Below are positions 4,556 to 7,503 of a stretch of DNA of 7,647 nucleotides, one piece after another. The stretch lies in the IMG/VR virus record IMGVR_UViG_2690316243_000010, one strand, 5' to 3'. The DNA comes from a virus (lineage: Duplodnaviria > Heunggongvirae > Uroviricota > Caudoviricetes). The notes beneath the pieces are model-generated. The model was not told the origin of the DNA and did no database searches. It worked only from the letters and a program-made list of their open reading frames with translations. Positions within the stretch are counted from its first letter, which is position 1. Every line of letters starts with the position of its first letter. The position numbers and the translations under genes were made by a program.

Positions 4556-4750
4556 ATGAGTACAGTCCTTTCCCCAATGGTTTCAGAATTTGAGACAGTT
4601 GAGCAAGAAAATAGTTACAACGAATGGCTGCGGGCCAAAGTAGCAGCAAGCCTCGCGGATCCCCGCCCGGCGATTCCGCATGATGAGGTAATGGCGGAAA
4701 TGGAACAAATTATTGCCCAAATTGCTGCTGCAACTCACAGAGGTGAATAA
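4556..4750 (+). CDS. paaA2: Antitoxin of the ParE-family toxin (PaaA2-like), 64 aa
   Basis: Small acidic protein. GAGGAG Shine-Dalgarno at 4541-4546. Stop TAA overlaps the toxin start (TAATG at 4748-4752). Sits immediately upstream of a RelE/ParE-fold toxin gene. Confidence 0.8.
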   Translation: MSTVLSPMVSEFETVEQENSYNEWLRAKVAASLADPRPAIPHDEVMAEMEQIIAQIAAATHRGE

Positions 4751-5040
4751 TGTTACCCGTTTTATGGCTACCATCTGCTCGTGATGATTTGCGCCAGATC
4801 GTAGCCTACATAGCTAAAGAAAATCCCGCGGCAGCACGCAGAATGAAAATTCGAATTGAAACATCCGTTTTGCCGCTCACAGAGCATCCTTACCTGTATC
4901 CTCCAAGCGAGCGAGTTCTTGGTCTTCGTGAAATTGTAACTCATCCTAACTACATCATCCTTTACCGAGTAACAGCATCAAGCATAGAAGTAGTAAATAT
5001 TGTGCATTCTCGAAGACAGTATCCAGGCAAAAACAGTTAA
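4750..5040 (+). CDS. parE2: ParE/RelE-superfamily toxin (ParE2-like), 96 aa
   Basis: Size, 1-nt overlap with the upstream antitoxin, and sequence character (basic C-terminal region ...IVHSRRQYPGK) are typical of ParE/RelE toxins. Followed by an intrinsic terminator. Confidence 0.85.
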   Translation: MLPVLWLPSARDDLRQIVAYIAKENPAAARRMKIRIETSVLPLTEHPYLYPPSERVLGLREIVTHPNYIILYRVTASSIEVVNIVHSRRQYPGKNS

Positions 5041-5056
5041 TTATTCCCGCCGACAG

Positions 5057-5078
5057 AACCACCTTAGGGTGGTTTTTT
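5057..5078 (+). terminator. Rho-independent terminator of the repressor-TA operon
   Basis: Stem AACCACC (5057-5063), loop TTAG, stem GGTGGTT (5068-5074), followed by a T run to 5078. Begins 17 nt after the parE2-like stop. Confidence 0.8.
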
Positions 5079-5097
5079 CTTGCCCCAACAAAAAACA

Positions 5098-5138
5098 ATA
5101 GCGATGCTATTTACATCAAAAAAAATAATGATGCTATT
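5098..5138. promoter_or_regulatory. OL-like operator pair: AATAGCGATGCTATT (perfect palindromic arms) and AATAATGATGCTATT
   Basis: Sites at 5098-5112 and 5124-5138, centres 26 bp apart, immediately downstream of the terminator and upstream of the rightward small-gene operon. Same motif as the 3961-4000 pair about 1.1 kb away. Confidence 0.7.
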
Positions 5139-5319
5139 GTTTCAGGCGTCAACCCACCCCGCCCCACAGAATGCAGGGCAATACTTCGAGTTACCAGACA
5201 GTGGTCAGGGGTTAAGTAGCCAGCCCGAGGCGTAAGAACATGACGGCAGGGTTCAATCTTTAACTATGCAGCAGGTTTTTTGTTCCGCCACCCCGGCGTT
5301 AAGGGGAAATGAGGTCAGC

Positions 5320-5472
5320 ATGGATACTATCGATCTTGGCAACAACGAATCTCTGGTGTGCGGCGTGTTCCCTAACCAGGATGGAACGTTTACCGCCATG
5401 ACGTATACCAAAAGCAAAACGTTTAAAACCGAATCTGGCGCGCGTTGCTGGTTAGCCAGAAACACTGACTGA
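5320..5472 (+). CDS. Small prophage protein, YdaF-like (DUF1391-type), 50 aa
   Basis: ATG at 5320 with GAGGT Shine-Dalgarno 4 nt upstream; the longer ORF-track start at 5266 lacks a Shine-Dalgarno. Stop overlaps the next start (TGATG). Position and size match the small genes left of the repressor in Rac-type prophages. Family assignment from memory, moderate. Confidence 0.6.
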   Translation: MDTIDLGNNESLVCGVFPNQDGTFTAMTYTKSKTFKTESGARCWLARNTD

Positions 5473-5849
5473 TGAGGCTGACGATGGAATTTAAAGATTT
5501 ACCGTCTGATGTACAGAAAACAGCAGCTCATACATTGCATTCTGTGCTGCGAGAAATCGGGAAAGATATTGCAAGCGAGCCAGCAAAAGATCTGGCCCGG
5601 AAAATCAAGACCGCTTTCGTTGAGCTTTATAATGTTGGCACTGACTCTGAAACTGTCGAGACCAAGACCGTAAGTTCACCAATATTCTCACTTGAGCCAA
5701 GCGTATTATCAGGTGAAATATGCACCGAGATTTCCAGCGAACTGCTTCCGGTAATACGAGAAGCAATTCGCCGTCGCGGTTTGGATGGAAGTTATGATCA
5801 TGACGTTCTGCAAGTTCTCAGGACAATGGTGACTTCACTGGGGATTTGA
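5472..5849 (+). CDS. Hypothetical early-left protein, 121-125 aa (start at 5472 by coupling, or at 5484 with a GAGG Shine-Dalgarno)
   Basis: ORF coupled to the upstream small gene. Acidic and not Arg-rich, so not an obvious N-type antiterminator. No family recognised. Confidence 0.55.
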   Translation: MRLTMEFKDLPSDVQKTAAHTLHSVLREIGKDIASEPAKDLARKIKTAFVELYNVGTDSETVETKTVSSPIFSLEPSVLSGEICTEISSELLPVIREAIRRRGLDGSYDHDVLQVLRTMVTSLGI

Positions 5850-6018
5850 TCCCTGCGTCCTCTAAGCTTTTGATATAGCGGTCCTCCAAGAAGCGGTAAA
5901 TTTTGTCGAAATCATCTTTTCCCTCTGGTTTATTCAGAGGATTACAGGACCCGTAAGTAGCGGCATACATTTCAACCGTTTTATCAAAAATATAAGAGAC
6001 AAATTCTTCTTTAGTCAT
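5818..6018 (-). CDS. Small hypothetical protein, 66 aa, convergent with and overlapping the 3' end of the upstream + strand gene
   Basis: ATG at 6018..6016 with AAGGA Shine-Dalgarno about 8 nt upstream. Coding region visibly more AT-rich than its neighbours. Hydrophilic, no transmembrane segment. A possible -35/-10 pair (TTTAAC, 17 nt, TATCCT on the minus strand) lies about 25 nt upstream. The 5' extension in the ORF track is probably not translated. Confidence 0.5.
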   Translation of the reverse strand: MTKEEFVSYIFDKTVEMYAATYGSCNPLNKPEGKDDFDKIYRFLEDRYIKSLEDAGIKSPVKSPLS

Positions 6019-6218
6019 ATAGATTTCCTTCTTGGTTATTCGGGATAAGAAGGATACCACCTCGCCTGACGTGGTTAAAAGCAGGCACACAACGCGAAAT
6101 GACGCGGCGGTAAGTATGGCGGAGTTATTCCTTCCCCGTTGAGGACACCGGGTTGTCAGGTTGACCATACGCTTAAGTGACAACCACGCCACAACACTCC
6201 ATGTTGATTGGTACCTTT

Positions 6219-6259
6219 GGCGGCATCAGTTTCATTGCTGGCTGATGTCCGCCCTTTTT
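6219..6259 (+). terminator. Rho-independent terminator, + strand only
   Basis: 11-bp stem GGCGGCATCAG (6219-6229) pairs with CTGATG(T)CCGCC (6242-6253) with one bulged T and a 12-nt loop, followed by CTTTTT. The opposite strand has no U run after the hairpin. Confidence 0.7.
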
Positions 6260-6260
6260 A

Positions 6261-6427
6261 AAGTGAATTTTGTGATGCGGTGAATGCGGCTCAGCGCACG
6301 CGGCACAGTTAAAAAGCGATTAGTTCCCCCGTATCGGGTGGTTATGGGTTTCCCTGTATCCGGCGTTAATTGTTAACTGGTTAACGTCACCTGGAGGCAC
6401 CAGGCACCGCATCAACAAAGTTCACTT
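6261..6427. repeat. Imperfect 22-23 bp inverted repeat flanking a 122-bp repeat-rich segment
   Basis: Left arm AAGTGAATTTTGTGATGCGGTG at 6261-6282. The reverse complement of the right arm at 6405-6427 is AAGTGAACTTTGTTGATGCGGTG (21 of 23 positions, one indel). The interior holds GTTAAC-TG-GTTAAC (6372-6385), hairpin CCTGG-AGGCA-CCAGG (6390-6404) and direct repeats CCGTATCGGG / CTGTATCCGG. Confidence 0.6.
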
Positions 6428-6746
6428 CGGTGATGAAAGGAAAGAGAAAATGTTGAATGTAGCTATTGAAAACCAGAACGGGTGGAATTATAGTGCACCT
6501 GCACCTTATAAAACGGGTGCCGGGCGTGGAAACCCGAACGTTACTCGAGCGCATAGCCGCGCTGAAGCGGTTTTTTTATGCGTAATGCACAGCTCCATTC
6601 AAATTATGGTGGGATGTGCAGGGCAGTCGCAAGACTGGCCGGGTTCTCGAGTGACCGGTATTTCCACCCCTGTACGTCTCACCACCCTTATGGTCGTGGA
6701 AAACCTCGGTGGTGAGTTAATTAACTTATCACTCGAGGATGCCATC

Positions 6747-7304
6747 ATGGCTACTATCCCTGCCCTTTCTCACCCTGACGTAACCATCGAAAATGGTCGC
6801 GCTGTCACTACGTCTATTGCGATCGCAGAGTTCTTTGGCAAGCGTCACGACAATGTGTTACGTGCCATCGCAAATACTGAATGCTCACCTGAATTTAACG
6901 CCCTCAATTTTGAGGACGTCACCTACACTGACGCCAAAGGCGAAAAACGCCCGATGTACCAAATCACCAAAAACGGCTTCGTTTTCCTGGTGATGGGATT
7001 CACTGGCAAAAAAGCCGCTGCATTTAAAGAAGCCTACATTGCTGAGTTCGATCGCATGGAGGCCGAACTGCGCCAGAATAACACCCCACCCACTGACAAA
7101 ATAATTCCAGGCGATGGCCGCACCCTGGTTGTTCACTTCGACGAACGCGGCAACATCAGATTCACCGAAACCGTTCCTGATGGCGCACGGGTCTGTACCA
7201 TGGAGACTTTCCGGTTTTATCTGGAAGAACAGGGATGGACTCTTGTTAACCGGGGCGCAATTAAAAATATGACTGTAGAGCAATTACTCAAAATTCATTG
7301 TTGA
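6747..7304 (+). CDS. Rha-family phage regulatory protein (Phage_pRha domain), about 185 aa
   Basis: ATG at 6747 with GAGGA Shine-Dalgarno 7 nt upstream. Sequence block AIAEFFGKRHDNVLRAIAN...MYQITKNGFVFLVMGFTGKKAAAFKEAYIAEFDRME is characteristic of Rha/ORF6N-type phage regulators as I recall them. The in-frame upstream extension to 6450 has a possible Shine-Dalgarno but non-protein-like composition, so the start is uncertain. Confidence 0.8.
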   Translation: MATIPALSHPDVTIENGRAVTTSIAIAEFFGKRHDNVLRAIANTECSPEFNALNFEDVTYTDAKGEKRPMYQITKNGFVFLVMGFTGKKAAAFKEAYIAEFDRMEAELRQNNTPPTDKIIPGDGRTLVVHFDERGNIRFTETVPDGARVCTMETFRFYLEEQGWTLVNRGAIKNMTVEQLLKIHC

Positions 7305-7314
7305 GGACGCGATA

Positions 7315-7503
7315 ATGGAAACGTTATTACCAAACGTTAATACGACTGAAGGTTGTTTTGAAATTGGTGTCACTATCAGTAACACGGTATTTACTGAAGA
7401 TGCCATTAACAAGAGAAAACACGAACGGGAGTCATTAAATAAAATATGCATTGTTTCAATGCTGGCTCGTTTGCGTCTGATGCAAAAAGGATGCTGGCGA
7501 TGA
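7315..7503 (+). CDS. Small hypothetical protein, 62 aa
   Basis: ATG at 7315 with GAGG 8 nt upstream, right after the Rha stop. Its stop overlaps the next start (ATGA at 7500-7503). The coupling supports it being real; no family recognised. Confidence 0.45.
   Translation: METLLPNVNTTEGCFEIGVTISNTVFTEDAINKRKHERESLNKICIVSMLARLRLMQKGCWR

Follow-up and report, generated by a model that had tools for sequence, protein, structure and literature searches.

Does a G+C-rich hairpin followed by a run of T residues at positions 6219–6259 (plus strand) of a viral DNA of 7,647 nucleotides (IMG/VR record IMGVR_UViG_2690316243_000010; this whole stretch is called the window in the following) only terminate transcription, or does it form the 3' end of a small RNA related to DicF? 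DicF was among the first bacterial small RNAs to become known and is a standard example of prophage control of host cell division. We consider it likely that the element is the terminator of a small RNA in the DicF slot of a dicB operon, and hence the structural module at the 3' end of that RNA.

Read on the plus strand, 6219–6259 is GGCGGCATCAG-TTTCATTGCTGG-CTGATG-T-CCGCC-C-TTTTT. The segment GGCGGCATCAG (6219–6229) pairs with CTGATG (6242–6247) and CCGCC (6249–6253) in 11 Watson-Crick pairs, 8 of which are G-C, with a single bulged T at 6248, and RNAfold adds two further G-U pairs (6230–6231 with 6240–6241) which close a loop of 8 nt. The terminator hairpin hence spans 6219–6253 (5' arm 6219–6231, loop 6232–6239, 3' arm 6240–6247 and 6249–6253, bulged U 6248). 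It is followed by C6254, T5 at 6255–6259 and then AAA; the C spacer with the U5 tract (6254–6259) is by its sequence the expected termination zone and is invariant in an alignment of eight alleles. The element thus has the G+C-rich stem, the short loop and the U-run at 0–2 nt from the stem that characterize intrinsic terminators, the spacer being 1 nt. The region 6200–6265 folds with a minimum free energy of -21 kcal/mol (z = -2.7; 3 of 200 shuffles equally stable), and a consensus terminator scan of the window lists the 6219–6259 hairpin as well. The minus strand can form the hairpin too, but the sequence that follows it there, AAAGGUACC, lacks a U-run, and therefore the signal is confined to the plus strand. 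The first-pass annotation had described an 11-bp GC-rich stem with T5, active on the plus strand only, 370 nt beyond the last plus-strand gene and directly abutting an inverted-repeat block, and this description is borne out: 11 pairs and T5 are present, the minus-strand tail carries no U-run, the ORF in question ends at 5849, and the repeat arms (6261–6282 and 6405–6427) begin right after the T-run. Since the window as a whole shows no enrichment of motifs with terminator shape (10 versus 8.9 ± 3.3 expected), the shape of the hairpin alone is weak evidence. On sequence comparison it is homology, orthologous position and the retention of the hairpin in 22 alleles that lift 6219–6259 above chance, and by analogy with K-12 the element would probably terminate transcription in vivo.

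Similarity searches assign the window to the immunity and early region of a lambdoid prophage with a Qin-type dicB operon. On the minus strand it carries DUF977, DUF1627, an IstB/DnaC-like ATPase, a 356-aa ORF, a YdaT-like gene and a cro-like HTH gene, and on the plus strand a cI-like HTH gene, a PaaA2-ParE toxin-antitoxin pair, a DUF1391 (ydfA-like) gene (5266–5472; Pfam E 3.3e-28; 90% identical to the K-12 ydfA region) and a 125-aa ORF (5472–5849), which in the ORF list is the last plus-strand ORF before the element, stands in the place of ydfB/ydfC, has no Pfam match and is a hypothetical protein in E. coli AMSCJX02. Next come a 66-aa minus-strand ORF (5818–6018, from the ORF list), which is antisense to the operon transcripts, has no Pfam match and is hypothetical in relatives, then the DicF-slot element, an isrK/C4/Rha module and the cell-division inhibitor gene dicB (7315–7503, plus strand; Pfam DicB E 1.7e-36, synteny). 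The K-12 order is dicC, dicA, ydfA, ydfB, ydfC, dicF, dicB, ydfD, and in most relatives dicB lies directly 3' of the DicF slot and its leader. The PaaA2-ParE pair (4556–5040), flanked by the genes of the cI-like repressor and the ydfA-like protein, belongs to the early-left operon or lies immediately 5' of it; K-12 Qin has no pair there.

The Rfam DicF model (RF00039) matches the plus strand at 6206–6254 over its full length (model 1–52 of 52) with 38.8 bits (E 7.8e-6), which falls below the gathering score of 48 bits. The same model gives 76.7 bits with K-12 DicF, 43.5 bits with an allele of E. albertii (L010) and 34.1 bits with another allele of the window's design (L023), which is called type-2 below, and it finds no match in the alleles L107 and L007. 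K-12 dicF aligns at the position of the window element, a similarity search finds an annotated DicF at the orthologous position of phage Tritos, and synteny with K-12 Qin, Tritos, mEp460 and AMSCJX02 places the element at the DicF position of the dicB operon. The 3' stem-loop with a GGCGG/CCGCC base and a following U-run, as required of the DicF family, is present. The other possibility raised by the first-pass annotation, that the hairpin is the 3' end of a small RNA, thereby takes shape as a DicF-slot RNA, on the Rfam match, orthology and the K-12 alignment. The window allele and K-12 Qin DicF share locus and operon, near-identical flanks, the GGCGG/CCGCC stem base, the C/U5 tail and the motifs AUCAGUUU and UUUGG. 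Unlike K-12 DicF, whose 5' tail is UUUCUGGUGACG, the window allele has the 5' tail UUGGUACC, a loop without the ACUCC anti-Shine-Dalgarno and a continuous stem of 13 pairs with one bulge. Because the curated score is not reached and both characterized pairing regions are absent, the window RNA is, as judged from sequence, a DicF homologue by position and residual sequence and not a plain family member. The missing DicF annotation in RefSeq was dismissed as a sign of novelty, as canonical alleles are likewise unannotated outside K-12. The type-2 kind of allele may already have been described as 'dicF-like', and the DicF likeness of the slot as such was noticed long ago, as the annotated 'dicF-like region' of phage P1 attests.

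Compared with K-12 Qin, the upstream block at 6093–6186 is identical at 91 of 94 positions (97%) and the sequence from 6255 onward at 87–93%, whereas the RNA body (6187–6254) agrees in 53 of 78 alignment columns (68%) and contains indels; on this alignment the divergence is restricted to the RNA body. Type-2 alleles differ from canonical DicF by a different and shorter 5' single-stranded region and by the absence of an anti-Shine-Dalgarno loop, and the hairpin of the window is more stable than that of canonical DicF (-21.0 versus -15.9 kcal/mol). Alleles were collected from public genomes and metagenomes by a scan for the anchors TAAGTGACAACC and TTTTTAAAGTGAA separated by a gap of 52–85 nt, which yielded 134 loci with 22 distinct bodies; canonical DicF accounts for approximately 120 of the loci and the type-2 design for a minority. 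This design consists of a constant CCATGTT, a hypervariable insert of 2–20 nt (GATTGGT in the window), ACCTTT(T)GGCGG, the hairpin GGCGGCATCAG...CTGATGTCCGCC, C and T5. Accordingly, the allele comparison divides the variable 5' single-stranded part of the window RNA (6187–6218, plus strand) into a constant CCAUGUU, a hypervariable GAUUGGU and a constant ACCUUU. All 22 alleles keep a hairpin between the same flanks (-12 to -21 kcal/mol), and their upper stems vary yet stay self-complementary, e.g., GGCGGGTATC/GATACCCGCC in L110; T5 belonged to the scan pattern, and its presence in the 22 alleles is no independent evidence. As the hairpin is kept in 22 of 22 alleles, the structure of the slot is maintained while its sequence is replaced. 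In E. albertii, one slot allele joins the canonical 5' tail to a window-like hairpin, and another has a short GGCGGA/UCCGCC hairpin.

Of 5426 complete E. coli genomes, 139 contain the 62-nt type-2 body and 4371 the region as a whole; the body is found in several prophage contexts, usually directly upstream of dicB or kil. An identical 106-nt segment has its sole match among complete E. coli genomes in a prophage of E. coli P393-F10 that adjoins ompW, a context unlike that of the window, where dicB comes next. At two type-2 loci (L141, 867–1088; L147, 817–1041), the slot and leader are followed by kil, which encodes a Rac-type FtsZ inhibitor, instead of dicB, so that two unrelated families of division-inhibitor genes are associated with the non-coding module. 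In E. coli O121 201805972 (L145, 536–640), a truncated ydfC runs straight into the type-2 hairpin, with deletion of the upstream block and the 5' tail and with a Rha gene downstream. Canonical E. coli DicF loci on contigs in metagenome-assembled genomes of Veillonella parvula and Collinsella (L013, L014) are probably due to binning contamination, and the host label of the 'Actinobacillus phage' record PP818812.1, which contains the same E. coli-type non-coding region, may be wrong.

The block at 6093–6186 (plus strand) upstream of the RNA body is a conserved structured RNA with three helices and is better conserved than the small RNA body itself. RNAalifold of 14 versions yields 20 pairs, 4 of them with compensatory changes, and an Rfam scan of 6093–6186 matched no family. 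The block also occurs in phages P1 and P7, approximately 40 nt 3' of the C1-controlled promoter Pban, and in Salmonella phage F1055, followed in both cases by a different terminator hairpin and T-run. The 'dicF-like region' of P1 (AF234173, 68472–68573) and its P7 equivalent resemble the window in having the same block with a hairpin and T-run within approximately 30 nt, in an early repressor-controlled operon (Pban). They differ in their own hairpin GCCCATCTTCGGGTGGGC, which is followed by G and T6 and is unrelated in sequence to that of the window, and in carrying tRNA genes downstream in place of the dicB leader, with an STnc100-like element approximately 1.2 kb further on. Candidate roles for the block are a processing signal, antitermination, attenuation or a recombination linker; a put-type antiterminator was rejected, as blastn-short of the block against the immunity/put region of HK022 (27000–36000) gave only chance matches of at most 10 nt. 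Compared with K-12, AMSCJX02 and mEp460, the window has lost approximately 79 nt of the spacer 5' of the block (at 6092/6093), with the short direct repeat (A)CGCGAAA at the borders of the deletion.

Canonical DicF pairs with the ftsZ ribosome-binding site (RBS) via its 3' region and with xylR via its 5' end, as known from the literature. Pairing with ftsZ was scanned in silico by accessibility-aware hybridization scored against 25 shuffled targets. For K-12 DicF, nt 32–53 pair with ftsZ -28 to -7 at a total energy of -9.3 and a hybrid energy of -22.7 kcal/mol (2 of 25 shuffles equal). For the window allele, the same scan finds no interaction with the ftsZ RBS, and its best ftsZ site joins the 5' tail to +20 to +35 at -6.7 kcal/mol, which 4 of 25 shuffled targets equal. 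In the homologous register 28 of the 37 K-12 ftsZ pairs are still possible, but the window allele has lost 3 of the 5 anti-Shine-Dalgarno pairs, and its register is displaced by indels. The heptamer AUUGGUA, which matches ftsZ codons 7–9, is unconserved among the other type-2 alleles. Given the missing RBS pairing, the lost anti-Shine-Dalgarno pairs and the unconserved heptamer, regulation of ftsZ is not claimed, and repression of ftsZ by the window RNA is unlikely. The canonical 5' seed UUUCUGGUGACG, which pairs with xylR in K-12, is absent, and the window has (GA)UUGGU-ACC, which is hypervariable in type-2 alleles; this hypervariability could mean that the 5' region is under no constraint and hence has no seed function. 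Within the window the 5' tail matches only its own antisense, and no cis target was found; its matches in the other fetched loci are at the level expected by chance for the 1 Mb searched. Plain RNAduplex and RNAcofold with shuffled small RNAs were abandoned, as they gave artefactual full-length duplexes and as shuffling destroys the hairpin, which makes the control unusable.

With no target found in ftsZ or in the window, the element could be a terminator or attenuator only, which sets how much transcription reaches dicB or kil as well as the recombination genes and releases an RNA without any role in trans, so that hairpin and tail are free to drift. Such drift would fit the very different hairpins that follow the same block in P1/P7, F1055 and E. 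albertii, as well as the variation in length and sequence of the type-2 5' region. We nevertheless judge it quite improbable: the stem base and the motifs AUCAGUUU and ACCUUUGG are common to the canonical and the type-2 alleles, at least 10 genome records share identical type-2 bodies, and canonical DicF, which resides in the same slot, is a proven Hfq-dependent regulator (PMC5069750). By analogy with the latter, the window RNA is probably still an Hfq-type trans regulator, one that would probably act by other means than the canonical pairing with the ftsZ RBS, and we lean slightly towards the view that a stable small RNA would accumulate from the window slot.

The element could also be a decaying remnant of canonical DicF, a functionless pseudo-sRNA in a defective prophage. 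The 68% identity to canonical DicF, the indels, the sub-threshold Rfam score and the loss of 3 of 5 anti-Shine-Dalgarno pairs are what such decay might leave behind. A remnant would not be expected to have a hairpin stabler than the canonical one and an intact U-tract, or to belong to an allele class that is common to many genomes and prophage backgrounds with its stem preserved, and the limitation of the changes to the RNA body between two nearly identical flanks points to allele replacement and not to uniform decay, which leaves this explanation very improbable.

The way in which a small RNA might arise from the slot is suggested by K-12. There, the 5' end of DicF results from an RNase E cut in a polycistronic transcript (PMC5069750), Rho-independent termination inside the dicB operon sets the 3' end of the 53-nt form (PMC5069750; PMC9438474), and a 72-nt form is produced by RNase III cleavage of read-through transcripts (PMC5069750). 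By analogy, transcripts in the window would start upstream at the repressor-controlled operon promoter and pass through the ydfA-like genes and then the structured block, some of them would terminate at 6254–6259, and trimming by RNase E would leave an RNA of approximately 50 nt, about 6208–6259. Read-through polymerases would reach the structured leader, which RNase III may cut, and then dicB; in the window they would meet the inserted isrK/C4/Rha module before dicB. The sequence elements for K-12-type DicF processing are all recognizable in the window. RNase E sites follow the rule RN↓WUU, and the best RNase E-like site, placed by eye in an A/U-rich single-stranded stretch, would be GA↓UU at 6207↓6208. 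As the hairpin exceeds the canonical one in stability by approximately 5 kcal/mol, it probably terminates no less efficiently; the U-tract of only 5 nt may in turn make it inefficient, and the short U5 followed by AAA predicts partial read-through, as the expression of dicB requires. Termination in vivo, processing by RNase E and RNase III, binding to Hfq and regulatory activity of the window RNA are all features that we infer from K-12 DicF. The proposed biogenesis from an operon transcript with an internal terminator and 5' trimming is also that of the 3'-UTR and intra-operon Hfq small RNAs SroC and CpxQ (PMC9438474), which, unlike the window RNA with its putative seed as the most variable part, are core-genome RNAs with conserved seeds.

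A simple scan, which also misses the known K-12 promoter and terminator, finds no promoter-like site on the plus strand at 5000–6465, in agreement with the failure of the first-pass annotation to place a sigma-70 promoter in 6050–6218 and with the excision of K-12 DicF by RNase E from the transcript of its operon. The hexamer TTGACC at 6161–6166 inside the conserved block would speak for an independent small-RNA gene, transcribed from a promoter within 6050–6218, as that annotation had proposed. Such a gene is very improbable, since the hexamer has no suitably spaced -10, this insensitive scan offers no other site and K-12 DicF derives from a processed operon transcript.

Downstream of the terminator, inverted repeats define a probable leader of the division-inhibitor gene (6260–6428, plus strand), in which a long-range helix of approximately 20 bp (6261–6282/6405–6427) encloses a multi-stem domain; the fold of 6085–6440 has z = -3.3. 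The STnc100 model (RF02076) matches 6266–6419 with 31.6 bits over part of the model, below its gathering score of 47 bits, and the K-12 dicF-dicB spacer with 34.4 bits over the full model. By analogy with K-12, the helix is the probable dicB leader and the probable RNase III substrate that gives rise to the longer DicF form, whose RNase III end (72-nt form) would map near window position 6273. In the leader helix, G-U wobbles of K-12 (GTGG/CTGC) correspond to Watson-Crick pairs (GCGG/CCGC) in the window. The U-tract region CTTTTTAA (6254–6261) is exactly complementary to TTAAAAAG (6309–6316), 47 nt 3', and this pairing could sequester the U-run in read-through transcripts.

The isrK/C4/Rha module spans 6430–7304 of the window, and the same insertion is present in E. 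coli AMSCJX02. The best promoter-like site of the window (6466–6494, plus strand; TTGAAA-17-TATAGT, 10 of 12 matches) lies just 5' of isrK and is a candidate for the module's own promoter. It is followed on the plus strand by an isrK-type RNA (6501–6577; RF01394, 61.2 bits, above the gathering score) with its own terminator at 6555–6572 and a T-run, by a C4-type antisense RNA (6602–6689; Rfam RF01695, 76.7 bits) and by the gene of a Rha-family regulator from an internal ATG at 6747 (6747–7304; Pfam Phage_pRha E 4.8e-32). A long ORF from 6450 overlaps the isrK and C4 RNA genes; within this ORF (6450–7304), Pfam Phage_ASH matches aa 14–109, i.e., nt 6489–6776, over the isrK/C4 genes. Either ATG 6747 is the true start of Rha, or Phage_ASH is in part a model of RNA genes in translation. 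In those fetched loci that extend far enough downstream, dicB follows directly in 4 of 5 type-2 and 90 of 98 canonical alleles, and the Rha module lies between slot and dicB in this window and in 4 of the 98 canonical-allele loci, these four being metagenome loci. A special link of the type-2 allele to the Rha module was discarded, as P393-F10 and most type-2 loci have dicB directly next. The first-pass annotation had likened the hairpin to a tL1 barrier ahead of the Rha operon. This stands in so far as, on the analogy with K-12 DicF, it is a terminator within an early-left operon, and it fails with respect to the Rha operon, as dicB comes next in P393-F10; on the locus counts and with its own promoter candidate, the Rha module is a later, independent insertion downstream, and the terminator was not built as a barrier to it. 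The window terminator is like the lambda-type tL of the pL operon in being an intrinsic terminator in an early-left operon 5' of recombination and division-inhibitor genes, and it is unlike tL in that no N/nut system is visible in the window and in that it doubles as the body of a small RNA.

A tentative extension of the DicF-slot reading, which we hold to be possible rather than probable, is that the DicF position is a swappable small-RNA cassette between two conserved structured blocks, the three-helix block upstream and the RNase III/leader domain downstream, and that type-2 alleles have been retargeted from the ftsZ RBS to host or phage mRNAs. Temperate phages may then swap terminated small RNAs in this slot or diversify them there, and the upstream block could be a processing or antitermination element which sets the share of RNA that ends at the terminator.

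Work on DicF has relied on alleles with an identity of more than 99% (PMC5069750). In approximately 2.6% of complete E. coli genomes, the slot holds a homologous RNA which keeps the terminator module and has a different tail and loop, and annotation by the family model therefore misses a part of the DicF repertoire. The existence of type-2 alleles also means that the presence of a dicF locus cannot be equated with repression of ftsZ in the manner of K-12. If type-2 RNAs have no new targets, the conserved role of the slot would be the metering of transcription upstream of dicB and kil; if they do have new targets, they would be a natural example of the retargeting of a small RNA by cassette replacement in prophages.
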